The notes under the pieces: generated by a model
What the model was told of the DNA's origin: nothing
What the model saw: only the letters and a program-made list of their open reading frames with translations
The model's database searches: none
Program-made: the position numbers and the translations under genes
Part shown: positions 3,318-50,091 of the stretch, in pieces
How the letters are laid out: each line of letters starts with the position of its first letter
Position numbering within the stretch: the first letter of the stretch is position 1
Source: Prorocentrum cordatum
Lineage: Eukaryota
NCBI GenBank assembly: GCA_963575745.1
Contig: CAUYUJ010000254.1
Location: 62,001-116,263, forward strand
Direction of reading: 5' to 3'
DNA length: 54,263 nt

Positions 3318-4876
3318 GGGGGGGCTGCGATCTGTGAAACTGTCGCCACTTTCGAGGGTTGCTGGGGGTCCAGCACAGTGACGTCCTACGCAGATTCAAA
3401 TGTGACCTCGCCATCCCTGGGGGGGCTGCGATCTGTGAGACGGTCGCCACTTTCGAGGCCTGCTGGGGGGTCCAGCATAGTGGCGTGCTACGCATATTCA
3501 AATTTGACCTCGCCGTCCCCGGAGGGCTGCGATTTGTGAAACCGTCGCCACTTTCGAGGGCTGCTGGGGGGTCCAGCACAGTGACGTCTTACGCAGATTC
3601 AAACGAGACCTCGCCTTCCCTGGGGGGCTGCGATCTGTGAGATGGTCGCCACGTTCGAGGCCTGCGGGGGGGTCCAGCGCAGTGACGTCCTGCACGTATT
3701 CAAATGGGACCTCGCCATCCCTGGTGGGCTGCGATCTGTGAAACTGTCCTTACTTTCGAGGGCTGCTGGGGGGTCCAGCACAGTGACGTCCTACGCAGAT
3801 TCAAATGGGACCTCGCCATCCCTGGTTGGCTGTGATCTGTGAAACTGTCGCCATTTTCGAGGCCTGCTGGGGGGTCCAGCACAGTGACGTCCTACGCAGA
3901 TTCAAACGAGACCTCGCCTTCCCTAGGGGGCTGCGATCTGTGAAACTGTCGCCATTTTCGAGGGTTGCTGGGGCCCAGCACAGTGACGTCCTACGCAGAT
4001 TCAAACGAGACCTCGCCATCCGTGGGGGGCTGCGATCTGTGAAACGGTCGCCGCCACTTGCGAAGGCTGCTGGGGGGTCCAGCACAGTGACGTCCTACGC
4101 AGATGCGGATTCGACCTCGCCATCCCTGGGGAGCTGCTACTTGTGAAACTGTCGCCATTTTCGAGGCCTGCTTGGCGGTCCAGCACAGTGACGTCCTACG
4201 CAGATTCAAATGGGACCTCGCCATCCCTGGTTGGCTGCGATCAGTGAGACGGTCGCCACTTTCGAGGCCTTCTGGGGGGTCCAGCACAGATGCGTCCTAC
4301 GCAGGTTCAAATGGGACCTTGCCGTCCCTGGGGGGCTGCGATCTGTGAAATTGTCGCCACTTTCGAGGCCCTGGGGGGTCCAGCATACTGACGTCCTACG
4401 CAGATTCAAATGGGACCTCGCCATCCCTAGGGGGCTGCGATCTGTGAGATGGTCGCCATTTTCGAGGCCTGCGGGGGGGTCCAGCATAGTGTCGTCTTAC
4501 GCAGGTTCAAGTGGGACCTTGCCGTCCCAGGGGGGCTGCGATCTGTGAAACTTGTCGCCACTTTCGAGGGCTGCTGGGAGGTCCAGCACAGTGACGCCTT
4601 ACGCATATTCAAATCAAACATCGCCATCCCTAGGGGGCTGCGATCTGTGAGACGGTCGCCACTTTCGAGGCCTGCTGGGGGGTCCAGCATAGTGACGTGC
4701 TACGCAGACTCAAATGGGACCTCGCCATCCCTGAGGGGCTGCGATCTGTGAAACTATCGCCACTTTCGAGGGCTGCTGGGGTCCAGCACAGTGACGTCCT
4801 ATGCAGATTCAAATGGGACCTCGCCATCCTTGTTGGGCTGCGATCTGTGAAACAGTCGCCACTTTCCAGGCCTGCT
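3318..4876. repeat. Tandem satellite, ~101-bp unit x ~15
   Basis: Unit GGGGCTGCGATCTGTGAAACTGTCGCCACTTTCGAGGGCTGCTGGGGGTCCAGCACAGTGACGTCCTACGCAGATTCAAATGGGACCTCGCCATCCCT, repeated head to tail. Confidence 0.96.
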
Positions 4877-5270
4877 AGTGGGGCGGGCCAGCATCGTGGG
4901 GCCCCACGGCGGACCCAATTGGGACCTCCCAACTGCTGGTCGCAGAAATACATACGTCCATGTCTCGCCATCACCCCCTTATGACGTCGCCCAAGCTGCT
5001 CATGCCCCGCATTGCGCAGGGGTTGGGTACGTCGCCAGGGTATTTTTTGTTGTATCTTTCTCCCTTGTCCCTCCTCTGCTTGGCGGGGTGGGACACTTGC
5101 AGTACCTGAGCCCTTCGGGACCGATTCGCGTAAGTCGCACATACGCGGGGACGCTCCGCGCTGGAGTCTACCTGAAATTGAGTCCGTGCCCATCTCCGAG
5201 CCGAAACCTGCGCAGCGCCTGTTTCCTCATCACATCGCAAAAGGCTCGCTTCTTCGGGAGGCTTTTATTT

Positions 5271-6143
5271 CGGCAGGGCTTCGCCCCCTGCCGCCGGCCC
5301 CCTCTCTCGGATAATGGGCTATGCAAGAGCTGAATCATGAGGCCTCGGCGCCTCCGTGAAGCAGCATCGGCAAGAGAAATTGAGATTCTGATGATATTGT
5401 TGGAGTCAGTGTTGCATTTTGAACCTGCCCCCGTCTGCTGTGCTCTGAGGTTCCCCACAGAATTTCAGACATGTGGCAAATCCCATGGGTTTTTCGACCC
5501 TGACTCCGCCGATCTGCGTGAGGGGTGCCTCCGAATTTCAGAAATGCGGCAAATCCCGTTGTTTTTTCGACCCTGACCCCGGCGATCTGCGTGAGATTTC
5601 AGAAATGTGGCAAATCCCATGAGTTTTTTGACCCTGACCGCGCCGATCTGAGTGAGGGGTGCCGCGGAATTTCAGAAATGTGGCAAATCCCATGTGTTTT
5701 TCGACCCTGGCTCCGCCGATCTGCGTGAGGGGTGCCTCCGAATTTCAGAAATGTGGCGTATCCCATTGGTTTTTCGACCCCCACTCTGCCGATCTGCGTG
5801 AGGGGCACTGCCGAATTTTAGAACTGTGGCAAGTCCCATCGGTTTTTCGACCCTGACTCCGCTGATCTGCGTGAGGGGTGTCACCGAATTTTGGAAATGT
5901 GGCAAGTCCCATTGATTTTTCGACCCTGACCCCGCCGATCTGCGTGAGGGGTGTCAATTTCGACCCCCCTCAGACATTCTGGGAACCCTCCCCAGAGACG
6001 CTAACCAGGGCACTTTTCTACAACAAGGAACAGGAGCAGCAGAAAGCAATCTTGTTACAGTGGGAACTGGAAACTGGAACTGGCGCAGGGAACAGCAAAC
6101 CCTCGTCCTGCAGCCTGGTGGCCCCACAAGGGGGCCGGCGGAT
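5271..6143 (-). mobile_element. Putative non-autonomous Helentron/DINE-like element A, carrying a 73-bp tandem array
   Basis: Hairpin GGGC-TTC-GCCC at 5276-5286. CCGCCGGCCCCC at 5291-5302 is a perfect 12-bp inverted repeat of GGGGGCCGGCGG at 6130-6141, and the latter also pairs locally with GGCCCC at 6120-6125. T-rich left flank, no target-site duplication seen. Both ends are homologous to element B. Confidence 0.7.
5460..5957. repeat. Tandem repeat, 73-bp unit x ~7 (cargo of element A)
   Basis: GAATTTCAGAAATGTGGCAAATCCCATGGGTTTTTCGACCCTGACTCCGCCGATCTGCGTGAGGGGTGCCTCC; units start at 5460, 5533 and onward. Confidence 0.95.
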
Positions 6144-7264
6144 CCCCCCGCAGTCCTGCCGTTCATCCTCGCCCCCTGGCCGCTGGAAAGGCCCTGCTCG
6201 TGGACCAGGGGGTCGGGGATTTGATTTTCGCGTGGGCTCCCGCGTCCTTGGCCAGCCCTTCCGTCCTTTTACTCGTCCGCTCGCTCCCTTCCACCCTTTT
6301 TCCCCTGATCCTCCTCGTTCCTTCCATGACCAGAATCCATGGCCAGATGACCGATGCGGTTTGCGAGCCACCACGCGGCCCGTGGAAAGCCAATCGGGGC
6401 ACTGTCGCCGCCGAGCGCAAGCTTTCGTCGAGGCGTCGTTGCCAGAGCGGGCCCCGACCTCCCCCGTGAGCCGCGGACTTTCTGTGAGCTTCTGTTGCAG
6501 GTTTCCGCCTGCCAGGCCTGACTGCGCGCAAGAGGGGGCGTCAGCGACGGGGGCGGGCTTCTGAGAAGCCGGGGGGGGGTGCTCCGAGCGCAGAGGCCTC
6601 GTTAGAAAGGGCCTGTTGGCTTCGAAGGCAGTTGCCTGCTCGCGAGCAGCCCCCCCGTGCCGTTCTTTGGAGCCCCCCCGGGTTTTTCCGAAGGCTGCCC
6701 CACTCACGCCACTACCTTTGTACGCGCTGCCCACCTGCCCTCCCGCTCCTTCTCGCCCTCCCCTCCCCTCCCCTCCCCCTCGGCCCCCTCGCCGCCGCGC
6801 TCGTCCTTCTCGCCCCTCGCCCTCCTCTGCCTCGCCTTCTCCCCTCTCCCTCGCCGCGCCTCCCTCGAGCTGCGCCCCGACGTGGCACGGGGGGCGGCGC
6901 GTCCGCGCTGATGCCCCCCCCCTCCCTTCTGTCCAGGTGGGCAAAGACGAGTTTGTGGAGGGCCTGATGCGTGCAGGCGCGGCGTTTGTCGCCTCCACGG
7001 CCGGCCGTACCCCGGGGCGGGCCCCGCGCTCTGGGAACCGAGGGAAGCCGCCCTCGGCAGGGGCCAGCGGAAAACGCTAGCGGGATCCTGCTGAGGTGAG
7101 GCGAGGCCGGTGGGAGCTGGCAGAAGCCAGCGGAGGACCAGCGGTTGGCCGGCTGATGTGAGAAGCGCCTCCCCGAAAGAGGCTTATCGGTGGAACCGGA
7201 ATGGGTACGAAAGCAATTGGCACGACGCTCAGCAACAGTTCTTGTCCATCTTGAACAGGACTCG

Positions 7265-7265
<1 letters not shown>

Positions 7266-7309
<44 letters not shown>

Positions 7310-7359
7310 CGTCCGGCCGGCCGGCCGGCCGGCCGGCCGGCCGGCTGGCCGTCTGTCTA

Positions 7360-7410
<51 letters not shown>

Positions 7411-7432
7411 CTTTGTCTGTCTGTCTGTTTGT
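7266..7432. repeat. (GTCT)n microsatellite with central (GGCC)n core
   Basis: GTCT runs grade through GTCC into palindromic GGCC units at ~7315-7350 and back to GTCT. Confidence 0.95.
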
Positions 7433-7509
7433 TTTTCCCCATATCCTAAGATGGGGTTCTTGTTATTTCTTGGACGCCGCCGACTCAAGAAAACCAGAAC
7501 ACACCTAGA

Positions 7510-7735
7510 ACACAGACTTACTCATACACAGACTTACTCATACTCAGACTTACTCATACCCAGACGTACTCATGCACAGACTTACTCATACCCAATTTTT
7601 CTCATACGCAGACTTACTCATACACAGACTTACTCATACTCAGACTTACTCATACCCAGACGTACTCACACACAGACGTACTCTTACTCAGACCTACTCG
7701 TATTCAGACCTTCTCATAGTCTGAGATACTCAACA
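7510..7735. repeat. 16-bp minisatellite CAGACTTACTCATAC(A/T/C)
   Basis: About 14 degenerate tandem copies. Confidence 0.92.
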
Positions 7736-7740
7736 CACGG

Positions 7741-8962
7741 CAGATTTTGAGGATGTCTCAGGCGGGGCGCTGGCTTCAGCACCCCTAAGGGGAGCCGCCA
7801 GGGGGTGTATCACGGGCCCGTTCGCGGCCAGTTGGTGGGGATGTCTCAGGCGGTTTGCTCGTTTTCATGCCCAACATTCTTTGCTTTCAGAGCCGATTGT
7901 GAGGATGTCTCAGGCGGGGCGCTGGTTTCAGCACCCCTAAGGGGACCCGCAATGGGTGTTCTCACGGGCCCGTTCGCGGCCAGTTTGTGGGGATGTCTCA
8001 GGCGGTTTGCTTGTTTTCATGCCCAACATCCTTTGCTTTCAGAGCAGATTGTGAGGATGTCTCAGGCGGGGCGCTGGTTTCAGCACCCCCAAGGGGAGCC
8101 GCCAGGGGTGTTCTCACAGGCCCGTTCGCGGCCAGTTGGTTGGGATGTCTCAGACGGTTTGCTCGTTTTCATTCCCAACATCCTTTGCTTTCAGAGCAGA
8201 TTGTGAGGATGTCTCAGGCGGGGCGCTGGTTTCAGCACCCCTAAGGGGAGCCGCTAGGGTGTTCTCACAGGCCCGTTCGCGGCCAGTTTGTGGGGATGTC
8301 TCAGGCGGTTTGCTTGTTTTCATGCCCAATATCCTTTGCTTTCAGAGCAGACTGTGAGGATGTCTCAGGCGGGGCGCTGGTTTCAGCACCCCTAATGGGG
8401 ACCCGCAATGGGTGTTCTCACGGGCCCGTTCGCGGCCAGTTGGTGGGGCTGTCTCGGGCGGTTTGCTAGTTTTCATGCTCAACATCCTTTGCTTTCAGAG
8501 CAGATTGTGAGGATGTCTCAGGCGGGGCGCTGGTTTCAGCACCCCCAAGGGGAGCCGCCAGGGGTGTTCTCACGGGCCCGTTCGCGGCCAGTTTGTGGGG
8601 ATGTCTCAGGCGGTTTGCTCGTTTTCATGCCCAACATCTTTTGCTTTCAGAACAGATTGCGAGGATGTCTCAGGCGGGGCGCTGGTTTCAGCACCCCTAA
8701 GGGGAGCTGCCAGGGGTGTTCTCACGGGCCCGTTCGCGGCCAGTTTTTTGGGATGTCTCAGGCGGTTTGCTCGTTTTCATGCCCAACATCCTTTGCTTTC
8801 AGAGCAGATTATGAGGATGTCTCAGGCGGGGCGCTGGTTTCAGCATCCCTAAGGGGAGCCGCCTGGGGTGTTCTCACGGGCCCGTTCGCGGCCAGTTGGT
8901 GGGGATGTCTCAGGCGGTTTATTCGTTTTCATGCCCAACATCCTTGGCTTTCAGAGCAGATT
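7741..8962. repeat. Tandem satellite, 152-bp unit x 8
   Basis: GAGGATGTCTCAGGCGGGGCGC at 7749, 7901, 8053 and onward. Each unit contains GGATGTCTCAGGCGG twice, suggesting an ancestral dimer. Confidence 0.96.
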
Positions 8963-9417
8963 TTGTTGCGTTGTCAGGAGGTCTGTGCACCGAGACCACC
9001 AACGTCATGATTTTCTCAACACGTCGCCTCCCCGAGGTCTCGACGTCTTCCCCAGGACCGGCTTTTCATCCCGAGTTGTTTTCTGAAGGTCCCAGGCCCT
9101 GGGGATGGCCCCGGGAGGACGACAATCGACGAAAACCCACCGTGAAGATTTTTTCACGATGCGAGGGGGTCTGAGGAGGGGCAGGTCTCCATGAGGCCCG
9201 CTCCCAGGGGCCGGGCTTCCGGTCCGGTGCCCCGTCGTCCCTCCCCAGGGGTTCGGGCCGGGGAGGCAGGCCTTGCGTGGCGCGCGCCGAGGACCAGCCC
9301 CGAGACGGGGCCCGCGGAGGCGCAGTGGCGGTGTACGGTCGGGAACCTTGGGTTGCGGCGGTGGCGTTGGTTAAGGAATGTGTCCAGGAGGCCTTAGACC
9401 CTGGAGGTTTCTTTATC

Positions 9418-9665
9418 CACGGCCACTCCACAACCAACTGGAACTCCGCCGGCTTCCAGGCCGTGGATTCCTTATCCAATGGTCCCTTATCTCCCTCTGG
9501 ACGGGGAGCCCTGGCCTGGGCGCGGACCCTGGAAGTTTCCTTATCCGATGAGAGCGTCTGGGATACCCACGGCCAATCCAAAACTGGAGCTCCGCCGGCT
9601 TCCAGGCCGTGGATTCCTCATCCGATGCTCCCTTATCTCCCTCTGGACGGGGAGCCCTGGGCGCG
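9418..9665. repeat. Local direct duplication (~100-bp core, ~146-bp period)
   Basis: AACTGGA.CTCCGCCGGCTTCCAGGCCGTGGATTCCT...CCTTATCTCCCTCTGGACGGGGAGCCCTGG occurs at ~9436-9513 and ~9581-9660. Confidence 0.85.
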
Positions 9666-10004
9666 GCGCGCGCTATCCTGGCGCTCTGTGGGAGCGGGCG
9701 GTGTCTCTCATGCGCCCTCGCGCTCTGGTGGGGCGGGCGGTTCCCGATGCGCTACAAGACAGTCGTATTGTATGCTCGGGGCGGACGCACGCCTCCGAAG
9801 AGGACACGTGGTACGAGCATGTCCAGGTGCGTCCCAGGTCATGCTGCTCAGAAGTGCCCCCCCCACTTGGGTGCCCCCGGCAGCACGGTCGGGGGCATGC
9901 GAGCCGGGGAGGCAGCTCCGAGGTGTGGGGGTGCTGCAGCGCGGCGTGGCCGCAGGTGGTGGTCCGCCAGGAACTCGCGGCTGGCCTGCAGTCCGGGACC
10001 TACA

Positions 10005-10893
10005 CTACACCACGACCACCAGCACCCACCACCACCAGCACCACCACCACCAGCACCCACCACCACCACCTGCACCCACCACCCACCACCACCAGCACCC
10101 ACCACCACCACCACCACCACCACCACCACCACCACCACCACCACCACCACCACCACCACCACCACCACCACCACCACCACCACCACCACCACCACCACCA
10201 CCACCACCACCACCACCACCACCACCACCACCACCACCACCACCACCACCACCACCCACCACCACCACCACCACCACCACGCACCACCACCCACCACCAC
10301 CACCACCACCACACCACCACCACCACCACCACCACCACCACCACCACCACCACCACCACCACCACCACCACCACACCACCCACCCACCACCACCACCACC
10401 ACCAACCACCACCACCACCACCACCACCACCACCACCACCACCACCACCACCACCACCCCACCACCACCACCACACCACCACCCCCACCACCACACCACC
10501 ACCACCACCACCACCACCACCACCACCACCACCACCACCACCACCCACCACCACCACCACCACCACCACCACCACCACCACCACACCACCACCACCACCA
10601 CCACCACCACCACCACCACCACCACCACACCACCACGCACCACCACCACCACCACCACCACCACCACCAACCACCACACCACACCACCACCACCACCACC
10701 AACCACCACCACCACCCCCACCACACCTATCCACCACCACCACACCCCACCACCACCCACCACCACCACCACCACCACCACCACCACCACCACCACCACC
10801 ACCACCACCACCACCACCACCACCACCACCACCACCACCACCACCACCACCACCACCACCACCACCACCACCACCACCACCACCACCACCACC
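10005..10893. repeat. Long (CAC)n trinucleotide tract, ~890 bp
   Basis: Nearly pure CAC repeats with scattered 1-bp indels. This tract generates the poly-P/H/T ORFs. Confidence 0.98.
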
Positions 10894-11129
10894 TCCTTTG
10901 TCCCCTCCCTCTCCCAGGAAGGAGGAGAGGAACAGGAGGATCGGGGAGGAGTGTGGCCGTAGGGGTGGTGAATGTGGTGGTGTATCGAAGACGCCTACGG
11001 CGAATCACCGCCGCCCCCTGCCTTTGTGGAAGCGCCTATGTGGCCGAACGTTGAGGCCAGACCTGCCAAGCCATCGGACCATGTGTTCCCCGAATCGGTT
11101 TGGAAAGCCTTCGGGGAACACGTGAGCGT

Positions 11130-11920
11130 CTTGATGGTCATCGTCGCCGTCTTGGAGGCCTCTTGGGCGATCTTTCGGCGATCTTTGGGGGCTCTTGGGC
11201 CGTGTCGGGCCGTCGGAAGGCCGAAAAAAGGGAAATGCCCAAATCCATCAAAAACCTTTGGAAAATCAGTGATTTTGGCATCTTTTGGCCTTCCTGGAGG
11301 CCCTCTTGGGGGCCTCTTGGGCCCTTTTGGGCCAGCTTCGAGCGAACTTCGGCCATCTTGGTGGGTTCCTGGCACGTCTGACGCCGTCGGGAGCCGTTTT
11401 GGGGGCCTTTCTGGGCCAACGGGGGACCCTCTTGGGGCGCTCCAGGGCCGTCTTGGAGGCCATCTTGGGCGTCTTGGAGGCCATCTTGGGCGTGTTGGAG
11501 GCCTCTTGGGCCCTCTTGGGGCCCTCTAGGGGCCATCTTGGAGGCCACTTGGGCCATCAGGGGGCTCTCTTGGGGGCCTCTTGGGGGATCTTGGGGGCTT
11601 CTTGGGCCGTCTTGAGCCGTCGGAGAGCCGAAAAGGCGCAAATGCCAAAATCCTTCAAAAACCAATGGAAAATCAATGATTTTGGCCTCTTCGGACTCTC
11701 CTGGAGGACCTCTTCGAGGCCTCTTGGGCCGTCTGGGAGGCCTCTGGGGGGCCTCTTGGGCCGTCTTGGGCCGTCTTGGACTCTCTTGGGCCGTCCTGGA
11801 GGCCGTCTTGGACCATCTCGGGCGGACTTGGAGGCCATCTTGGGCTATCTTCGCGATTTTTTGAGGATGTCCCGAGCGAAACGGCCGTTTTTGGGCACGG
11901 TGGCGGGACGGGCCGGATCC
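11130..11920 (-). repeat. Dispersed repeat built from ~11-bp (G/C)TCTTGG(G/A) units
   Basis: Dense CTCTTGGG/GTCTTGGAGGCC units. Related blocks lie at 15640-16160 and 28030-29700, and inverted at 41705-42290. Ends in an inverted element-end motif at 11894-11920. Confidence 0.85.
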
Positions 11921-12219
11921 CACTGGGGAGTTCTTTTGGAAAAAGAACCAAAACCAAAACCTGAAACGTCCAGCACGCCGTGCACCCCTGCAAGCAGGGG
12001 GCGGCGGATCTGATGGCCTCCGGCCCATCCCGCCACCGTGCCTGGGGTGTGGGTCAGAGTTCTGAGGCTTGGAGGATGAAGGAAGGTCCCGAGGGCACGC
12101 CCACGACTCGCCCAGAGGCACGGCGGTGTATATTTCTGCAGCCCGTACACCGTGGCTCGAAGCTGCACGCCTCATCGTCATCGTCATCGTCATCGTCATC
12201 ATCATCTCTGCTGTCCTGC

Positions 12220-12910
12220 CGCTCTTCCCTCCTCTTCCCTTCGTTCTCCTTGTCTTGTCCCTCCCTCCCTCTATCCCTCCCCCTTCTTCTCTCCTCCCCT
12301 CCCCCCCACCTCGCTCTGCCCCCCACCCCCCTCTCTTTGCCATCCTTGCCCCCTTATCCTTCCTTCCTGCCTCCCTCTTCCAGCCCCCCCGCCGCCCCCG
12401 CAGGCTTCGTGCGGGCACGGGAGGAGCGGCGCCCCCTTCTTGCGGCCCGGCCCCTGTCTGCGCGCCGCCCTCGCCCGCCCCCCCTGTCCTTTCCCCTCCC
12501 CTCTTCCCCCCTGTGCCCCTTGCCCCCCCCCCCTCCCCTTCCCCCCCTCCCCCCCCCTTCCCCCCGTCCCTCTCCCTTTCCCTTTCCCGTCTCTCCGCAC
12601 CTCCCCCCCCGCACCTCCCCCCCTTGCCCCCCTCTTCCCCTCTCAATTTGCTCCCCCCCCCCCCCCCTCTCCCCCCCCCCCCCTCCCCCCTCTCCCCCCC
12701 TCCCCCTCCTCCCTCCTTCCCCCCCCCTCCCCCGCCCCCTCTGTTCGGCCGCCCGTTCCCTGGGAGGCGCCACGCCTCGCTGCCTGGGGCGGTTCCCCTT
12801 GCCGACCTCGCCCCTCCGAGTTCTCCTCCCTCCTTTGTTCCCCTTTTCCCCCTCTCCTGCTCCTGCTCCTGCTCTTGCCCCCCCTCCGCCCCTCACCCCG
12901 CCCCCCTTCC
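12220..12910. repeat. C-rich polypyrimidine low-complexity tract
   Basis: Runs of C interspersed with T; G-quadruplex-prone on the minus strand. Confidence 0.9.
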
Positions 12911-13309
12911 CCAACAGAGGTTTGCTTCTTGTCCGAGATCAGTCTGGTCGAGTTCACCTGGGCCGAGCTCGTCCGGGCCGAGTTCAGCCTGGCCGAGTTC
13001 AGCCTGTCGACGTCGGCAGCCTGTCCGAGCTTTTGCCCCCCCTGGCACTCCCCCCTCTGCCTGCACAGGGCCTGGGTCACGTCCGGGCCGACAGCCCGTC
13101 CCATCCCTCAGTCTTTCTGTTTGTTTGCTGGGTTGAATATGGATTATTGAATCAATTTCCCTTCCGTATCCGCTTTGGCGCTCTCGCCTCTGCAGAGGCT
13201 GCGTTTCTGAACCTGAGGCTCGCGCTCAAGCGTTTTGGGGTTCCTCCCAAACCGCCCCCCCCACAACGACAACGACCACGCTCTTGGGCGATATTTCTTG
13301 TCAATTTAT

Positions 13310-13770
13310 TCCGGGAGGCTTTGGCCAGAGAGGGCCCGAACCTCAGGAAAGGCGCTCTCGCGTGAGATTTCCTTGCCAATTGGCACCAGAAGGGGGGTCC
13401 TTTGGAGCAGTGTTGCCGGTATTTGCGGATGCCGGCACGACCGTTTCGCTTCAGACTTCTTCGCGGTTCAACACCACAACGGGGTCATTCGGAACAAGAT
13501 TGCTGTTACTCGCGGATGCCAGAACGATGTTTTCGTTTGAGACTTTTGTTCGATTCGCCATCGCAGGGAAATTATTCACAGCATTCGTGCTGCGAATCGC
13601 GGATACAGGAAGGGCCGTTTCGCCTGAGACTTCTTCGCGATTCATCCGCTACTTGTGGATGCCCCAGGAGGCCCCAGGACGCTCCAGGATATGTGTTCGG
13701 GGAGCGTTTTTCGGCCTTCCGCCCTCGCGAGGCCCCAGGAGGCATTTCCTGCATTTGGGGTGTGTGTCTG
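13310..13770. repeat. Dispersed repeat copy 1 with internal ~65-70-bp subunits
   Basis: GGCCAGAGAGGG...ACCTCAGGAA.GGCGCT.TCGC.TGAGATTTC through GAGGCCCCAGGA.GCATTT aligns with 17150-17630. Followed by (GT)n at 13836-13891. Confidence 0.8.
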
Positions 13771-13831
13771 GGGAGCCGTTTCTGGCTCCCCCGTTCCGAG
13801 GAGGCCGCAGGAGATTTTTTTTGTTTCAGGA

Positions 13832-13893
<62 letters not shown>

Positions 13894-15553
13894 GGGGGCG
13901 GTTTTGCGGCGTCCCCGTCCCCAGGAGGTCCCAGGAGGCCCCAACAAACCGTGGGAAACAATTCTCAGTGTTGGGATCTTTGTTCGGGGAACGATTTTTG
14001 GCCTTCGTGCGCTTCGCTCCTGTAGGCTTCGTTCCTATTGGCTTCGCCGCCCCTCTTTTTGGGCTCGATTGTTTTTGTGTGTTTACGTATGTTGTTGTTT
14101 GATGCCTTTTCGGGGGCTCGAATCCTCAGTGTTTTACGTGCTTTCCTTACTATTGCCCCTCGAGTGGGGGTCGAATCCTTGTACGTTTGCTCCTGTACAT
14201 TCCTCCTCGACTGGGTCTCGAGTTTTTTGTGTTTTACGTATGTTCCTATTGATTGCCCTTCGCCTGGGGCTCGAACTTTTCGTGTGTCCCATCCTTTCCG
14301 TTCCCCAAAGTCGCACTGCTTGTAATGTGTCGTATGAGCTGACAATCTGAATGTGCATCGAAAGAGGTGATGGCTCGACCTCCTTGGGCGGGAGATCGGC
14401 GTATGGGACTGTTGGCACTCTTTTCATCTAGTTCCCCCCAAAAGGAGTGGCAAGAGGATGGATGCATGCGGCATGTGGAAACATGGCGCGTGAGAGTAAC
14501 ATGGTTGTATGCTACTTGGTGGGCAATCATTATTGTTAGACCCCCTGTCTCCGCTTTGGCGCTAATGCCTTTGCGTTGGTTGTTGTTCCTTTGAATTTGT
14601 CGCTCACGTTTGAGCGTTTGGGGGTGCCGCCCAAACCCGTCCCCCAACAACCGCAGCAACAGCAGCACCAGCAGCATTACCAACAGCAGCAGCAACAACA
14701 ACATCAACACCAACAGTACCCATAGCAACAACAACAACAACAACGCAACAGCAGAATCAACACCAACACCACCACGAACAACACCACCAACACTAATTTT
14801 AAGACTGTTTGCTGGAATTCGCTCACGTGCCATCCAACACGTATATCCCAATCCTTCGGTACCCGCCCTCATCGTGTTCGATCGTGCCCCCATTTGGGTT
14901 ATATCGTCCGCGCGTGCGACATGTATTTTGTGCAGTCCCTAAGACAGGGGAAGGGAGGACGGATGGAACGGGGGAGGAAAAGGATGTAACACGAGAAATG
15001 TTAGCAAAAGGGGGGCTAAGAACATAACGCATGTGGTACAACCAGACGAGCAGATCGGGCGGGCAGACCTTGGCGGGCGGGTCGGGAAGGCGGGCTTTGG
15101 CGGCCAGGTCGAGCAGGCGGGTTGTTGAAGCGTGAGTCCTGCATGCGTCGCGAGGAAGTCTAGAGTTCCTGCATGAGTCGTGAGAAAGTCTAGAATGACA
15201 GCGCGATTCCCAAGTAAATCGTTAGAGCAACCAGAGCGAGAGTGTGATTCATGCGTGTCGAGGGCGCAGCGCTTGAATACATTGCGAGGAAATCCCACGC
15301 GAGAGATCGATTCCTGTATACTTTGTGCGGAAGTCTCGCGCGAGAGCGCGATGTCGGAATACATTGTGAGGAAGTGTACGGCGGGAGCCGTTGTTGTTGC
15401 AATCGGGGGGCCCAGGGGTACAGAAAACAGGGTGCGAACCCCGAAGGGCCATCTCAATTGAAAAAGCCCAATGTGCACAAGTGGGAGATCAACAGGATTA
15501 GTTGCGAAGGCCTTACGGCCGTTGCCGCCGACCCTGAAGGGGGACGACGACGA

Positions 15554-15615
<62 letters not shown>

Positions 15616-15639
15616 TGGGTCAGAGTCCTCAGGGATTCT

Positions 15640-16165
15640 GTTTGTGGTCTCTTCGGAGCGCTCTCGGAGGCCCGTGGGGGCAGTTTTGGGGGTCCCTTGG
15701 GAGCATCTTGGAGGCCTCTTGGGAGCCTCTTGGGAGCCTTTTGGGGCTTCCTTGGGGCCTGGGGGCCGCTTGGAACCACTTGGGATCCTCTTGGGGGCCT
15801 TTTGGGGGCCTCTTAGCCTCTCGGGGCAGAGGGCTCGAAATGTCCGTTTTGTTTCTCTGTCTGGGCACCTTCTTGAAGCTTTTTTGAGGGCCTCTTGGGC
15901 CCTCTTCGGGCCCCGTCGGCCAGCTTCGGGACCCTCTTGGAGGCCTATTGGGGCGATCGTTGGAGCCTCTTGGACCGTTTTGGAGCGTCAGGAAATCAAT
16001 GAATTTTGCCTCTTGGGGCTCTTTTGGGAGTGTTCTTCGAGGCCTCTTGGGGCGTCTTCCAGTCCTCTTGGGCCGTCTGGAGGCTGTAAGGATGTCTTGG
16101 ACCGATCGTTCGGCGATTCGGGGTCCTCTTGGACCGATTTGGAGGCCTGGCTCGTCTTGGGACTG
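15640..16165. repeat. CTCTTGG-family dispersed repeat
   Basis: Same ~11-bp units as 11130-11850. Preceded by (GAC)n at 15543-15614 and by a hairpin + CCGCCGACCC end motif at 15509-15534. Confidence 0.8.
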
Positions 16166-16210
16166 AAAACGCAATGTGCACCGGTGGGGGGGGGATCAAC
16201 CAGATTTTAT

Positions 16211-17101
16211 CCGCAAGGGCTTCGCCCCCATGCCGCCGGCCCCCCTCTCCTAGAATGGGACTTGCCAGAGCTGTGTTGGGATGCCTGGACGCTGACGTGA
16301 AGCAATGTTGGGGGTTCACGCGAGGGCCAATATTCATTTACGAGGGTTTATGGCTTCGGTGGCGCGACTATTCGGTAATTTAAAAAGTTTTGTGGCTTCG
16401 GGGACGCGATCACCGGGAAATTTACGAGGGTTTGTGGCCTCGGGGACGCAGAGACCGTGTAATTTATGAGGGTTTATGGCCTTGGGGGCGCAACCATAGC
16501 ATAATTTACGAAGGTTTATGGCCTCGGGGACGCGAATTTTGTATAATTTACAAATGGTTTGTGGCCTCGGGTACGCAAACATAGTATAATTAAAAAAGGC
16601 TTATGGCTTAGGGGATGCGAATCTGGTGTAGTTTTCGAGGGTTTACGGTTTCGAGAGCGCGAGCATGTTGTAATTTACAAAGGTTTATGGTTTTGGGGGC
16701 GCGAACATTGCGTAATGTATTAAGGTTTATGGTTTCGGGGATCTGAATATTGTGTAATTTACAAGGGAAGGGATTCGATTTCGGGAACGCGAACATCGTG
16801 GATGTCGTGTAATTTATGAGGGTTTATGGCTCCGGGGACGCGAATCTGGCATACTTTCTTATGGATTGTGGCTTCAGGGACGCGAATCTCAAGTATTTTT
16901 ACGTGTTCACGACCCCCCGGGAATTCAGACAACGCGATCCAGGGACGCTAACCAGGATGCTTTTCGGCTCCCCTCCTCGCGCGTTCAGTAGCAAAGGAAG
17001 CAGAAAGCACTGTAACAGTGGAAACTGGCAACTGCAGCTGGTACAGGGAGATGCAAGTCTAATCTTCGCAGCCTGATGGCCCCGCAGGGGGGTCTGCGGA
17101 T
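16211..17101 (-). mobile_element. Putative non-autonomous Helentron/DINE-like element B, carrying a 42-bp tandem array
   Basis: Hairpin GGGC-TTC-GCCC at 16217-16227. CCGCCGGCCCCCC at 16233-16245 versus GGGGGGTCTGCGG at 17087-17099 (11/13 inverted match). Flanked by TTTTAT and ATTTT. Shares GACGCTAACCAGG, GCAGAAAGCA, TGGAAACTGG and GCAGCCTG.TGGCCCC with element A. Confidence 0.7.
16335..16902. repeat. Tandem repeat, 42-bp unit x ~13 (cargo of element B)
   Basis: TTTACGAGGGTTTATGGC(C/T)TCGGGGACGCGA + ~8 variable nt + TAA, with a 42-bp period. Confidence 0.92.
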
Positions 17102-17149
17102 TTTAAGAATGAGATTTCAACGTTCCCGTGGGGTTTCCTTACAATTTAG

Positions 17150-19426: not shown

Positions 19427-19526
19427 NNNNNNNNNNNNNNNNNNNNNNNNNNNNNNNNNNNNNNNNNNNNNNNNNNNNNNNNNNNNNNNNNNNNNNNNNN
19501 NNNNNNNNNNNNNNNNNNNNNNNNNN
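19427..19526. other. Assembly gap (100 N)
   Basis: Run of N after a (GGA/GCA)n tract. Confidence 1.
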
Positions 19527-21589: not shown

Positions 21590-21651
21590 GCGATGATCGT
21601 GATTGTGATTCTGATGGTGGTGAGGATGAGGATGATGATAATGACACTGTC

Positions 21652-21736
<85 letters not shown>

Positions 21737-21961
21737 CTGCTGATGATGATGATGATCAGGATGATGATGTTTACGATGCTGACGAGGTGGATGAGGAGGA
21801 CGAGGACGAAGAAGATGATAATAATGAGTATGACGGTGACGATGATGACGATGATGACGACGCCGATGAAGCTGATGATGATAATGATGATGATAGTTGT
21901 AACGATCATGGGTGGTGGATGATGTATGTTGGCTGATGGTTGATGGTGGATGGTGGTGGGT

Positions 21962-22011
<50 letters not shown>

Positions 22012-22199
22012 CAGAATAAGAATGATGAGGGTGGTGAATGTGGTGGACATGTAGACGATGCTGCTGATGATGATGTTGATGACAACGGCGACGTTGATGC
22101 TAGTGATTAGTAATAGCATGATGAGGACGAGGAGTAGGGAGACGATCATGATGAATCTGGTGACGACGACCATGCTGATGCTGATGGTGATGATGATGC

Positions 22200-22237
<38 letters not shown>

Positions 22238-22330
22238 GTGACGACGATGCTGACGACGATGCTGACGGTACTGACGACGAGGATGACGGCGACGCCGACG
22301 TCGACGACGCTGATGATGATCAGGATGATC

Positions 22331-22397
<67 letters not shown>

Positions 22398-23281
22398 CGC
22401 TGATGATGCTGATGATGGTGGAGGTGGTGATGATGATGGTGAAGGTGATGATGATGATGATGGTGACTATTATTATTATTATTATTATTATTGTCATTAT
22501 TATTATTGTTGTTGTTATTCTGGATGGTGATGATGCTGATGATGATGCTGATGAGGATGATACTGATGCTGGTGATGATGCTGCTGCTGATGATGATGAG
22601 GATGATCATGAGGATGATGCTGATGATTCTGGTGGTAGTCTGGTGGTGGTGGCGGTGGCGGTGGTGATGATATAATGGTGGGGACGCCGACGATGAGGAT
22701 GAGGATGAGGATGAGGATGAGAATGTGGATGAGGATGAGGATGAGGATGATGATGTTAATGATGATGATGATGATGCTTATGATGGTGATGATGATTATG
22801 ATGACGGCGACGATGATGATGATGCTGATGGTAATGCTGATGATGATGATGATGATGATGAGGATGATGATGAGGATGATGATGACGATGATGTTGATGA
22901 TGATGATGATGATGCTGATGAGGATGATACTGATGCTGATGATGATGATGCTGATGATGATCACGATGATTTTGTTGTCGTTGATGATGATTGTGGTGCT
23001 GATGATGCGTATGACGACGGCGCTGATAATGATACGGATGCTGCTGCTGATGATGCTGCTGATGATGCTGCTGATGATGTTGATGTTGCGGAAGACGACG
23101 ATGCTGATACCGATACTGATGCTGCTGCTGCTGACGAGAATGACGATGATGACAATGATGATGATGATGCTGATGATGATGCTGACGCTGATGCTGATGC
23201 TGATGCTTATGACGCCGCTGTTGATGCCGATGATGCTGCTGCTGCTGATGATGATGATGATGCTGATGATGATGCTGATGT

Positions 23282-23345
<64 letters not shown>

Positions 23346-23439
23346 ACTGATGACGATGATTCTGATGATGATGAGGAGGAGTATATGATGATGATAATGA
23401 TGATGATGCTGATGCTGATGCTGATGCTGATGCTGATGC

Positions 23440-23513
<74 letters not shown>

Positions 23514-27885: not shown

Positions 27886-29862
27886 TCGCTTCGCTCATTC
27901 CGCCGGCCCGTATTGGTGCACGGCTGTCGAGTGCCCGTGTGATCGTTGTCAACGGGGTGCTGCTGGGTAGTTTTTTTGTTTACGGATGGCTGGCTTTGGG
28001 TGATTTCGCAGGCGGGAACCATTCTTTGTCTCCATGTTGGGCCCCTCTTGGGCCCCTTTTGGGGTCCTCTTGGACCGTCTTGGGCGCCTCTTGGGCTGTC
28101 GTGGAGCCCTCTTCGGCGGTCGTGGGGCTCTCTTGGAGGCCTCTTGGACCGTCTTGGGGTGGTCTTGGGGGCTTCTTGGGCAGTCTTGGAGCGTCGGAGA
28201 GGCGAAAAGGCGAGGAGGCAAACAATCTCGCAAAATCTAAAGGACATCAATGGTTTTGGCGCTCTGAGGCTTCGTGGACGTTCATTGGGATCTCGTTGGA
28301 TGCCCTCGAGGGCTTCTTGGAGACTCTCGGGAGTCGATGTCGAGCCTCTTGGGGTCTCTTTCGGGCCCCTTGTCGCTTGTTGGGGCCTCTTAGGAGCCTC
28401 TTGGGGCGTCCAGGAGGCCTCTTGGAGCGGAAGGCTCGGATTCTCGGTTCGTGGTCTCCATCTTGGGTCTCTCTTGGGGCCCTCTTGGGGTCTTCTTGGA
28501 CCGTCTTGGGCGCCTCTTGGGCTGTCGTGGGGCTCTCTTGGCGGTCGTGGGCCTCTCTTGGAGGCCTCTTGGGCCGTCTTGGGGTGGTTTTGAAAGCTTC
28601 TTGGGCCGTCTTGGAGCGTCGGAAAGGCGAAAAGGCGAGGAAGCCAAAAACCTTGAAAAACCCAATGGAAATCGATGGTTTTGGCGCTCTGAGGCTTCGT
28701 GGACGTTCATTGGGATCTCGTTGGATGCCTCTGGCTTCTTGGAGACTCTCGGGAGTCGATGTCGAGCCTCTTGGGGTCTCTTTCGGGCCCCTTGTCGCCT
28801 TTTGGGGCCTCTTAGGAGCCTCTTGGGGCGTCCAGGAGGCCTCTTGGAGCGGAAGGCTCGGATTCTCGGTTCGTGGTCTCCATCTTGGGTCTCTCTTGGG
28901 GCCCTCTTGGGGTCCTCTTTTACCGTCTTGGGCGCCTCTTGGGCTGCCGTGGGGCCCTCTCTTGGGCTCTCTTGGAGGCCTCTTGGGCCGTCTTGGGGTG
29001 GTCTTGGAGGCTTTTTGGGCAGTCTTGGAGCCGAGGAGGCAAACAACCTCGCAAAACCTAAAGGACATCAATGGTTTTGGCGCTCTGAGGCTTCGTGGAC
29101 GTTCATTGGGATCTCGTTGGATGCCTCTCGAGGGCTTCTTGGAGACTCTCGGGAGTCGATGTCGAGCCTCTTGGGGTCTCTTTCGGGCCCCTTGTCGCCT
29201 TTTGGGGCCTCTTGGGGGCCTCTTGGAGCCTCCAGGAGGCCTCTTGGAGCGGAAGGCTCGGATTCTCGGTTCGTGGTCTCCATTTTGGGCCCCTCTTGGG
29301 GTCCTCTCGGGGTCCTCTTCGACCGTCTTGGGCGCCTCTTGGGCTGTCGTGGGGCCCTCTTGGGCGGTCTTGGGGCTCTCTTGGAGGCCTCTAGGGCCGT
29401 CTTGGGGTGGTCTTGGAGGCTTCTTGGGCCGTCTTGGAGCGTCGGAAAGGCGAAAAGGCGAGGAAGCCAAAAACCTTGAAAAACCCAATGGAAATCACTG
29501 ATTCTGGCCTCTTGGGGCTCTCTTGGAAAGGGTCGGGGCTCTCTTGGGACGTCTTGGAAGCTTCTTGGGCCGTCTTGAGGCCGTGTTGGGCGTCTTGGGC
29601 CGATCGTTCGGTGATTCGGAACCCCCTTGGACCGTCTTGGATTCTTGTTGGGGCCCTCTTGGAGCGCTCCGGGGAGCGTGGAAGGCCGCACCCAGGAGGA
29701 AAACCAGCTCTGACCTGAGTTTGCCGGGAGTGTCCCGGGACCTTGCCGGGGTACTTTTCGCCCGGGCCCCCCCGGGGGCCGCCCCGCGCGCGCGAACTAG
29801 AAATATTGTTAAGTAGTTACCGGAGATCTTAGCACGCCTCTGGCCCGTTGGGCTGGCGAATT
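27886..29862 (-). mobile_element. Putative element C enclosing CTCTTGG-family higher-order repeats (~410-420-bp period)
   Basis: GC-TTC-GC mini-hairpin at 27888-27894 + CCGCCGGCCC at 27900-27909. Right end GCACGCC..GCCC-GTT-GGGCTGGCGAATT at 29832-29862 (8/10 inverted match). Internal GGTTTTGGCGCTCTGAGGCTTCGTGGACG occurs at ~28252, ~28677 and ~29073. Confidence 0.5.
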
Positions 29863-30870: not shown

Positions 30871-31035
30871 TAGATGAGGGCAGGATCCAGGGAGAGGGGG
30901 TCGGGGGAGAAGTAAACCTCTCACCGAAGGGACAGAGGAGTCTGAAAGAGCTAGCTCCTCAAACCACTTACGCCCGAAGGGCTGGTGGATTTTCTGGGCG
31001 AGTTGCCTTGATCAAGTAAGTGCAGGAATTTACGG

Positions 31036-31057
31036 TCCCTAGCCATTTTGGCTCAAG
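31036..31057 (+). other. Relict dinoflagellate spliced leader (DinoSL), copy 1
   Basis: TCCCTAGCCATTTTGGCTCAAG; 21/22 match to DCCGTAGCCATTTTGGCTCAAG, ending 56 nt before the ATG. Confidence 0.95.
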
Positions 31058-31113
31058 GGCTTCCCTCCAGGGCTCCTTGCACCGGCCAGCAGCTCCCCAG
31101 CGCCCGCGGCGCC

Positions 31114-32223
31114 ATGTCGCTCCGCTATGGGAGCTACGGCGGAGGCCTCAGCGGAGGCGCGGGCGGCCTCGGCGGCGCGTACGGTGCGGGCCGCGGGTAT
31201 GGCGCCAGCGGCCTGTACGGCGCGGGCGGCGCGTACGGCGCGGGCGGCGCGCGCGGCGCGGGGGGCGCGGACTGCGGCACGGCGTGCTGCGCAAGCACCA
31301 CCGCCTGCATGGGCTGCGGCCCCGGCTGCGGCGTGGGCTGTGCCGAGGGCTCGGGCTGCGGCGGCGGCGGCGGCACGATCCTGAGCTACGTGGGCCCAGG
31401 GGGCGACTACGTCCAGGAGACCACGTACAAGTACGTGGGCATGGGCGCGGGCGAGTTCGGGGCGGTCCGCATCCCTGGGCGCGGCCCGAACTTCTGCCTG
31501 ATCTGCCTCGTGCCCCTGGGACTGTCGCTCCTCCTGCTGCCCCTCCTGCTCTTCGCGATGTCGCCTGGCTCGACGACGACCACGACTACTACCACACCCG
31601 TGATCATCACGACCACTCCGCCGCCCGACACCACGACCACGAAGATGACCACCACCACCAAGAAGACCACGACGGCCCCGCCTCCGCCCCCGCCGCCCCC
31701 GCCGCCGCCGCCCCCGCCCCCGCCGCCGCCCCCTCCCCCGCCGCCCACGACTACGGAGAAAAAAATCAATTGCGGCGAGGGCGATGTCGTGTCCTGGGAC
31801 GTGCCCAAGAAGGTATATTGCTGCCTGCACGAGGGCAAGGGCTGCCCGACGACCCCGGCCGCTCCCAGCACCATGCCGGCACCGGTCGTGCCGGTAGTGC
31901 CAGTGGTAACCACGTCCCCATGCCCGATTGATTGCAACGCTGGTTACAACGACCTCGACCCGCTGCAGTGGGTCCGCGGCTGGTCCGGCGAGAAGAAGTT
32001 GTTCTGCTGCAAGACCGCGAACAAGGGCTGCCCGTCGGAGCTGCCCCCACCCTCTGGGGCGCCGCCTTCCAACGCACCCCCGGAGCCGGACAACAGCGTG
32101 TACGACTGCGACGCGGGCTACCACCACTGCATGCATTGTCTCGAGCTGTCGTGGTCTCCCAGGAAGATCGGCTACTGCTGCGAGAACTTCCACAAGGGCT
32201 GCAAGGGCGAGGAGCCGGAGTGA
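31114..32223 (+). CDS. Intronless 369-aa Gly/Thr/Pro/Cys-rich single-pass membrane protein, copy 1
   Basis: GCC-ATG context, strong GC3 bias and an upstream DinoSL. Hydrophobic segment FCLICLVPLGLSLLLLPLLLFAM, Thr stalk, polyPro, three C..W...K...CC.....GC modules. Conserved across copies with largely synonymous changes. Confidence 0.9.
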   Translation: MSLRYGSYGGGLSGGAGGLGGAYGAGRGYGASGLYGAGGAYGAGGARGAGGADCGTACCASTTACMGCGPGCGVGCAEGSGCGGGGGTILSYVGPGGDYVQETTYKYVGMGAGEFGAVRIPGRGPNFCLICLVPLGLSLLLLPLLLFAMSPGSTTTTTTTTPVIITTTPPPDTTTTKMTTTTKKTTTAPPPPPPPPPPPPPPPPPPPPPPPTTTEKKINCGEGDVVSWDVPKKVYCCLHEGKGCPTTPAAPSTMPAPVVPVVPVVTTSPCPIDCNAGYNDLDPLQWVRGWSGEKKLFCCKTANKGCPSELPPPSGAPPSNAPPEPDNSVYDCDAGYHHCMHCLELSWSPRKIGYCCENFHKGCKGEEPE

Positions 32224-34566: not shown

Positions 34567-34666
34567 NNNNNNNNNNNNNNNNNNNNNNNNNNNNNNNNNN
34601 NNNNNNNNNNNNNNNNNNNNNNNNNNNNNNNNNNNNNNNNNNNNNNNNNNNNNNNNNNNNNNNNNN
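34567..34666. other. Assembly gap (100 N)
   Basis: Run of N within a (GGA)n tract of the spacer. Confidence 1.
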
Positions 34667-49500: not shown

Positions 49501-50007
49501 ACCCGCCCCCAGGAGGCCAACATGTGGTAACATTACTGATTTTGGCTCTTCTCGCCGAGGCCCAAAAAGATGCTCTGACACCTCGCGCCCCCCCCTCCAG
49601 ACCCAGGCGGAGGAGGTAGGGGGAGGGGTAAACCCATCCCTGAAGGGGAAGAAGGGGGTTCGAAGAGGAAACTCCTTAAACCACTCACGCCCTAAAGGGT
49701 AGGTGGGATTTGGCATCCTGGGTGTCTTCTTGGGGGGCTCCGTGGCCACATTGACCTGTCTTGAAGCGGTTTTGGAGCCCCTTGGAGCATTTTGGAACCC
49801 ATCTTGAGCCATTTCGGGATATCTTGAACCATCTTGGAAGCCATCTTGGGATCTCTGAGGCTCTCTTGGGCCATCTTGGACGTTCTGACCGCTGGCGGCC
49901 CCCCCTGTCCAGACCCAGGGGAGGGCCGAGTAGGGGAAGGAGGGTGTCGGAAGAGGGAAACACATTCGTGATACAACCTCCACTCAGAGGGCTGGTAGGC
50001 ATTACGG
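46515..50007 (+). repeat. Complete 3' UTR + intergenic spacer; array period copy 3 to copy 4 = 4688 bp
   Basis: ATG 45404 to ATG 50092. Confidence 0.93.
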
Positions 50008-50029
50008 TCCGTAGCCATTTTGGCTCAAG
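50008..50029 (+). other. Perfect genomic DinoSL, copy 4
   Basis: TCCGTAGCCATTTTGGCTCAAG, 22/22. It is followed by 5' UTR rather than the GT-starting SL-RNA intron. Confidence 0.97.
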
Positions 50030-50091
50030 GGCTTCCCTCCAGGGACACACCTCCCTGCGTCGGCCAGCAGCTCCCCAGCGCCCGCGGCGCC

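Follow-up and report, generated by a model that had tools for sequence, protein, structure and literature searches.

Same ends, different arrays: two candidate Helentron-type non-autonomous elements in the dinoflagellate Prorocentrum cordatum

Dinoflagellates have very large genomes that are rich in repeats, most of them unclassified. A stretch of 54,263 nucleotides from Prorocentrum cordatum (assembly GCA_963575745.1, contig CAUYUJ010000254.1, positions 62,001 to 116,263 of the forward strand; the whole stretch is called the window below, and all positions are counted within it) raises one question about such repeats in a compact form: what kind of object keeps the same two ends around a middle that is unrelated from one copy to the next? 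The two objects concerned, elements A and B, had been picked out in a preliminary description of this DNA, which proposed that a shared shell either swaps its cargo or repeatedly generates new tandem repeats at a fixed internal site. The answer that we favour on balance is that A and B are diverged copies, probably from different subfamilies, of a non-autonomous DNA transposon of the kind mobilised by Helitron2/Helentron-type rolling-circle transposases, that is, of the HINE/DINE-1-like kind. This answer is drawn from sequence comparison, and chiefly from the anatomy of the element ends.

The shell and its arrays

The boundaries of A and B are the points where the homology between them starts and stops, placed by eye from the sequence and a MAFFT alignment. 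The homology begins at TTTTAT (5263 in A; 16205 in B) and stops at GCGGAT (6143; 17101), which gives the lengths of 881 and about 897-898 bp and bears out the near-equal lengths noticed in the preliminary description; the constraint on total length that was also proposed there would be a conjecture from these two copies. When the two elements were compared with the window by blastn, only two pieces were found in common: a left piece (5275-5363 against 16216-16304, 78% over 90 nt) and a right piece (6038-6143 against 16999-17101, 76% over 107 nt). In the MAFFT alignment the right block starts earlier, at CGACCCCCC (5961/16909). Over the aligned columns of a global alignment, the left block is 78.1% identical over 108 nt and the right block 78.3% identical over about 185 nt, so the shared left end and right block that had been described are both present, at about 78% identity each. 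Outside these limits the outer flanks of A and B have no match with each other (blastn and flank comparison), and neither end block occurs a third time in the window.

Between the two blocks each element has a tandem array. The seven units of A are 73, 62, 72, 73, 73, 73 and 68 nt long, with a mean pairwise identity of 87.7%; the 13 units of B have a mean pairwise identity of 74.6%. The units of A and B are unrelated. Consensus units, each doubled, were compared by local alignment on both strands and under five scoring schemes, and nothing rose above shuffled sequence: the observed score was equalled by 952 and 225 of 1000 shuffles under the first scheme, and reached by 178-451 of 500 shuffles under three further schemes and by 331 and 192 of 500 under the fifth. 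Profile hidden Markov models (HMMs) of the units (7 from A, 13 from B and 5 from a third array introduced below) recovered their own arrays only, the best cross match having E = 2.8. A common ancestral monomer of the two arrays, for which the preliminary description had asked on both strands, is thereby rejected, and its impression of unrelated central units stands. Neither blastn nor the profile HMMs found solitary A or B units elsewhere in the window.

The shells bring a clock of sorts to this comparison. Since they retain 78% identity, arrays that had merely diverged along with them would stay recognisable; we infer that the arrays of A and B arose, or were replaced, independently after the shells split. 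The identity among B units (74.6%) is close to that between the shells (78%), while the A units are more alike (87.7%), so that under equal rates the B array would be about as old as the split and the A array younger. The B array is thus probably old, and the A array probably a later gain or replacement. What stands of the proposal of a shell with changing cargo is a bounded shell with arrays that appear to have been gained or replaced independently, whether by swapping of cargo or by birth of new repeats in situ.

One weak lead concerns a likeness between unit and shell. Two models are available for arrays of this type, in which the element either captures a satellite from outside or duplicates its own sequence in tandem (PMC7492417). 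A screen of 16 comparisons (two units, four shell parts, two strands) singled out the A unit, whose reverse complement can be aligned with the left shell (CGGC-CCCCTC..GGAT / AATGGG..TGC.A.A..CTGAA); on re-testing, 11-31 of 2000 dinucleotide-shuffled sequences attained this score for the A shell and 11-145 of 2000 for the B shell, uncorrected for multiple tests. The likeness does not survive correction for about 20 comparisons, and the profile search scored it as non-significant (E = 2.8); it points only weakly toward self-derived repeats. It would also suit a different mobile mechanism, a foldback-like element built of units that repeat its own end in inverted form, or else an introner-type element, with inverted repeats near intron ends. 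Introns of P. cordatum are reported to be enriched in introners, whose inverted repeats (8-20 nt) and direct repeats (3-5 nt) lie at most 30 nt from the intron ends (PMC10666404), and dinoflagellate introners derive from many transposon types (PMC12130899). However, A and B share no splice-site-like ends, nothing in the scan of the window's open reading frames (ORFs) against Pfam places either of them in a gene, and the foldback version leans on the very likeness that is lost on correction. We consider such a mechanism quite improbable.

Conserved anatomy of the ends and a third 3' terminus

The preliminary description had passed over the ends themselves, whose asymmetric inverted repeats and hairpins point to the Helentron/Helitron2 kind. 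Judged by this anatomy, we propose that both copies lie on the minus strand, and the features are named accordingly in Table 1. Read on that strand, each element starts with 2 nt, a 5' subterminal inverted repeat (subTIR), a nested palindrome and a conserved block with a (CCAGTT)x3 run that is degenerate in B, followed by the array; then come a spacer of variable length (87 nt in A, 22 nt in B), the conserved 3' block, the 3' subTIR, a stem-loop and a tail of about 10 nt that ends in A's. The inverted repeat is asymmetric, since it lies 2 nt from the right end and 28 nt from the left one; the terminus from which the 2-nt spacing is counted is the end of the A/B homology, in two copies only. 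A perfect inverted repeat of at least 13 nt between 60-nt ends, as in A, occurred in 13 of 20,000 random 880-bp segments of the window.

The palindromes and hairpins differ in strength from copy to copy. At the 5' end, the B subTIR is inside a palindrome, CCGCAG/CTGCGG (17082-17099), with a fold of -8.8 kcal/mol (z = -2.1); the fold around the A palindrome is overall no better than shuffles (z = +0.9). The hexanucleotide run in the conserved 5' block of A was not reported by Tandem Repeats Finder (TRF). At the 3' end, the stem-loop of A has an 8-bp stem (GGCAGGG..CCCTGCC; -10.2 kcal/mol with DNA folding, z = -2.0, 8 of 200 shuffles equally good), and the stem-loop of B carries GCGAAGC on the minus strand as well. 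Sequences of the form GCGNAGC make an extraordinarily stable DNA mini-hairpin (PMC13037366). This form is found on the minus strand only, which is a small argument that the minus strand is the one handled as single-stranded DNA.

Table 1. Features of elements A and B, with positions in the window
Feature	Position	Strand	Remarks
Element A, whole	5263..6143	- (proposed from end anatomy)	881 bp; limits are those of the A/B homology
A, conserved left block (3' block on the minus strand)	5263..5372	-	78.1% identical to 16206-16313
A, 3' stem-loop between subTIR and end	5271..5293	-	loop core GCGAAGC on the minus strand (5278-5284)
A, 3' subTIR	5291..5303	-	AGGGGGCCGGCGG on the minus strand; 28 nt from end; conserved in B and L001
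A, central array	5460..5953		TRF period 73, 6.9 copies; 7 units of about 73 bp
A, conserved right block (5' block on the minus strand)	5961..6143	-	78.3% identical to 16909-17103
A, microsatellite-like (AACTGG)x3 in conserved 5' block	6063..6083	-	read by eye; degenerate in B
A, short palindrome GGCCCC/GGGGCC	6120..6136	-	5' arm nested in 5' subTIR; 6-bp stem, centroid fold
A, 5' subTIR	6129..6141	-	CCGCCGGCCCCCT on the minus strand; 2 nt from element end; perfect 13 nt with 5291-5303
ATTTTA at left boundary of B	16204..16209	+	repeated at right, 17100-17105; read from sequence
Element B, whole	16205..17101	-	about 897 bp
B, conserved left block (3' block)	16205..16313	-	contains 3' subTIR (16233-16246) and stem-loop (16213-16233)
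B, central array	16336..16890		TRF period 42; 13 units, each about 42 bp except for one of 55 bp
B, conserved right block (5' block)	16909..17101	-	from MAFFT, blastn and global alignment
B, 5' subTIR	17086..17099	-	2 nt from end; 12/14 (86%) complementary to 16233-16246

A third example of the 3' terminus came from outside the window. One 24-base pattern from the left end was scanned against 596 Gb of prokaryote-labelled genome contigs and gave a single match, on a 3070-bp contig labelled as a Victivallales metagenome-assembled genome (DASCNA010000309.1, L001 below). This terminus agrees with the end of B at 37 of 40 nt, 24 of which were fixed by the search pattern, and the agreement spans the subTIR, the hairpin and the tail. 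The homology of A, B and L001 continues beyond the left repeat, through the hairpin and into the ..ATAAAA tail, and the stem-loop core GGGGGCGAAGCCCT (minus strand) is invariant in all three. Because the hairpin and tail outside the repeat are conserved in this way, that stretch belongs to the element, which sets it apart from a plain terminal inverted repeat.

L001 also has an array, of 5.8 units of 78 bp (850-1305), which ends 195 bp upstream of the terminus and is oriented to it as the arrays of A and B are to theirs. The terminus thus adjoins a tandem array in three of three instances, each with a different unit, which extends to a third kind of array the association between end blocks and arrays that had been drawn from A and B. 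As a control, 456 of 5000 random 450-bp segments of the window lay at least 90% inside long-period arrays. The comparisons with L001 cover 2127 of the 3070 nt of the contig. Kinship between the B and L001 units was considered and rejected: the score was reached by 8 of 500 shuffles, which is not significant over 20 tests, and the match has the wrong orientation relative to the terminus. As a separate observation, every 78-bp unit holds a palindrome (at 971-1005, for example) with 17-nt arms, CCGCAGCAAAATCGCAA/TTGCAATTTTGTTGCGG. Outside the array the contig has no ORF longer than 136 amino acids and contains several minisatellites, and for these two reasons we regard its bacterial label as doubtful.

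Two other explanations have to be weighed against this anatomy. According to the first, A and B would be cut-and-paste elements, namely transposable elements of the miniature inverted-repeat type (MITEs; non-autonomous transposons with terminal inverted repeats) with internal tandem repeats and a 5-6-bp target-site duplication; similar elements of molluscs and insects used to go by such a name (PMC4067079). The copy that suits it is B, which is bounded by ATTTTA on both sides and has TCCGCA in inverted orientation at its extreme ends. This hexamer might represent a target-site duplication or else a T-rich target. In A, however, there is no flanking direct repeat, the T's standing at one end only, so that a flanking repeat is seen in one of the two copies; at the very tips the inverted match shrinks to about 5 of 9 in A and 6 nt in B; the strong inverted repeat lacks symmetry, standing 28 nt from one end but 2 nt from the other; and the hairpin and tail conserved in A, B and L001 lie outside it. 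A MITE origin is therefore unlikely in our judgement.

The second explanation needs no mobility at all. An old local duplication of one minisatellite locus, whose arrays were turned over by unequal exchange beyond recognition, would account for two copies separated by 10 kb and sharing one strand, in a window of which 35% is tandem arrays and of which the right half is built of segmental repeats, and it would be content with the fact that no empty site was found. Against this, the homology ends sharply on both sides with unrelated flanks, and the periods of 42 and 73 nt have no residual similarity although the flanking blocks keep 78%. The 40-nt terminus is found in the unrelated contig L001 as well, beside a different array, and subTIRs and hairpins would be unexpected in a plain duplicated locus. 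Of the explanations considered, we hold this one to be very unlikely.

The window around the elements

The G+C content of the window is 55-69% in most 2-kb bins and falls to 0.47 at a (TGA)n tract. Tandem arrays make up the 35% of its bases mentioned above (TRF, 203 rows). The other large arrays lie at 12-1794, 3319-4876, 7740-8962 and 28028-29512, with units of 64, 101, 152 and 422 bp, and among the pairs tested these units have no kinship with those of A or B. The A/B shell has no homologue at these four arrays or at the arrays of 16-, 83- and 82-bp units. There are two long trinucleotide tracts, (TGA)n at 21612-23513 (about 1.9 kb, 73% purity) and (CAC)n at 10008-10893 (about 0.9 kb). An 11/21-bp minisatellite (CTCTTGGGGCC-like) recurs at 11423-11845, 15649-16143, 28028-29600, 38209-38407 and other places, and one of its occurrences is directly upstream of element B. 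Two assembly gaps of exactly 100 N each are present (19427-19526 and 34567-34666).

No structured RNA gene is indicated in the window, since Rfam gave zero matches at gathering score across its whole length. None of the 188 ORFs of at least 110 amino acids (269 before a complexity filter) passed the Pfam cut-off; a coding element was rejected on this ground, and a sole OAD_gamma signal, sub-threshold and lying in a low-complexity ORF, was discarded.

The right half of the window (about 31030-54260) consists of segmental repeats with 82-97% identity, whose units begin at about 31030, 39776 (partial), 45318 and 50002, every one of them with a Gly-, Pro- and Cys-rich gene. By appearance this is a tandem gene array, and such arrays are common in dinoflagellates. 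The ORFs at 31012-32220 and 49999-51195 are paralogues with a third-position G+C of 0.87-0.88, and the best database matches of both are unnamed P. cordatum proteins at 82% identity over 26% of the query. In the protein of 31114-32220 (+), a Gly/Ala/Tyr-rich head is combined with a hydrophobic stretch, with Thr/Pro runs and with a C..W....K...CC.....GC motif that is present in three repeats; the protein belongs to no Pfam family and has 59 relatives, mainly of marine metagenome or transcriptome origin. In both Prorocentrum-like gene copies, CCNTAGCCATTTTGGCTCAAGG stands about 55-60 nt before the ATG (31034-31058 and 50006-50030, +). We take it to resemble a relic of the dinoflagellate spliced leader, and such a relic would mark the genes as mRNA-derived copies.

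Proposed explanation and its known relatives

If A and B are Helentron-type elements, as we favour, the shell would be the part that acts in cis. It would comprise the 5' subTIR with its nested palindrome and the conserved 5' block with the hexanucleotide run on one side, and on the other the conserved 3' block, which ends in the partner repeat, the GC-rich GCGAAGC stem-loop and the A-rich tail of about 10 nt. A Rep/helicase encoded elsewhere would nick the element ends and peel off one strand, with the 3' hairpin serving as the stop signal. The middle would be free of the constraint that acts on the shell and could be filled by a tandem array.

Several observations weigh against this explanation. 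There are only two full copies, in 54 kb and with unrelated flanks, plus one 3' end, and mobility is presumed. A clean empty site is missing: the upstream flank of B matches 29490-29641 and its downstream flank matches 13294-13751, and neither paralogue has a junction that brackets the insertion. Among the 188 filtered ORFs of the window, Pfam recognises neither a Rep/helicase nor any other transposase domain. The ATTTTA on both sides of B would fit a target-site duplication. The runs at the ends are of A on the strand of the 5' subTIR (T on the other), and the 5' flank of A has none, whereas HINEs, which enter T-rich sites without duplicating the target, have T runs at both ends on that strand. 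The 3' subTIR of A and B lies 28 nt from the end, as against 38-60 nt in mite HINEs. The hairpins of B and L001 have a 4-bp GGGC/GCCC stem only, with folds no better than shuffles (z = +0.15 and -0.11). In L001 there is no 5' subTIR upstream of the array (at most 3 mismatches) and no homology to the 5' block. Finally, inverted repeats of 12 nt with at most one mismatch in 260-nt flanks occur at 17% of random placements in this GC-rich window; flanking inverted repeats were found at 1 of 8 other arrays of the window, which is not beyond this background. Since such looser repeats are common, the weight rests on the perfection of the repeat in A, on its position and on its conservation in B and L001.

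The explanation would nevertheless be of practical use. If A and B represent a working Helitron2/Helentron-type element, the 40-nt terminus would be a search handle for annotating one class of dinoflagellate repeats. It would also give a handle on the birth and spread of minisatellite arrays, one that could be linked to the Helitron2-like transposase of Symbiodinium. A bolder version can be formulated, in which a dinoflagellate-specific Helitron2-like lineage has a short terminal signal (the subTIR and the GCGAAGC mini-hairpin) that is common to otherwise unrelated families, each of which seeds or captures its own minisatellite, so that the lineage would be a main engine of the creation and scatter of arrays. 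We think this version unlikely; if it holds, these elements would create and scatter the arrays that fill about one third of the window and much of the multi-gigabase genomes of dinoflagellates, and the terminus in a contig of a bacterial metagenome-assembled genome would reflect either algal contamination or a signal that moves between very different hosts.

There are several known systems to which A and B can be compared, and canonical Helitrons are one of them. These have a hairpin about 11 nt from the 3' end and non-coding derivatives, and possibly share with A and B the lack of a target duplication. They are described as having no subterminal inverted repeats (PMC4067079), and their signatures (5'-TC, 3'-CTRR and insertion at A|T) appear on neither strand of A and B, which run from TTTTAT to GCGGAT on the plus strand and from ATCCGC to ATAAAA on the minus strand; an assignment to canonical Helitrons was rejected accordingly. 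Foldback elements and MITEs with tandem repeats are short and non-coding and carry internal tandem arrays, as A and B do. They differ in having symmetric terminal repeats and target duplications, whereas A and B are asymmetric and one of the two copies is without a flanking direct repeat.

Another is Helitron2. The Chlamydomonas element has asymmetric terminal inverted repeats and palindromes at both ends (PMC4067079), as in A and B, and among dinoflagellates there is a report of a RepHel element resembling Helitron2 in Symbiodinium microadriaticum (PMC8788227). Both are autonomous, with a Rep/helicase gene, unlike A and B, and the comparison with them is one of organisation.

The closest likeness is to the HINE/DINE-1-like elements of Drosophila, mite, mosquito and bivalves, and it is a likeness of anatomy; sequence similarity was seen to none of the animal elements that could be compared. 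The hallmarks of this group are subTIRs of 12-15 nt, the 5' one 2-4 nt from the end, central repeats, a palindrome close to the 3' terminus and a lack of coding capacity (PMC4067079; PMC7492417); the 3' palindrome or stem-loop is 8-35 nt from the end, and the subTIR preceding it 38-60 nt in mite HINEs (PMC4067079). A and B largely follow this plan. They have a subTIR of this length near the 5' end, where, as in DINE-1 and Cg_HINE, a palindrome lies within it or next to it, and a short microsatellite-like run; their central tandem repeats amount to about half of the element, again with no coding capacity; and after the 3' subTIR comes a stem-loop, some 8-10 nt from the end, which is a strong fold in A only. 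Tandem-repeat-carrying MITE-like elements is an older label for such elements in molluscs and insects (PMC4067079). The differences are in the host, in the A/T runs, which are on the opposite strand, in the 3' subTIR, which is nearer the end (28 nt), and in the unit length, which is 42-78 bp in A, B and L001 compared with 140-180 bp in the oyster Cg_HINE elements.

The combination of same flanks and different satellites, by which A and B first drew attention, has published precedents that the preliminary description had passed over. In group 2 of the oyster Cg_HINE elements (Cg_HINE_3 and Cg_HINE_6) related flanks surround completely unrelated central repeats, and DINE-1 shows related flanks with unrelated repeats between Drosophila species (PMC7492417). 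For dinoflagellates, a literature search conducted largely at the level of titles and abstracts found no description of tandem-repeat-carrying non-autonomous elements of the Helitron type, and the word Helitron does not appear in the main text of the P. cordatum genome paper, supplements aside (PMC10666404). The behaviour itself is thus already known from oysters and insects, and it is most likely the dinoflagellate member that would be new. If our explanation is right, A and B would extend from animals to alveolates the habit of HINEs of keeping the same flanks around different satellites, and group 2 of Cg_HINE would be their nearest counterpart in this respect.

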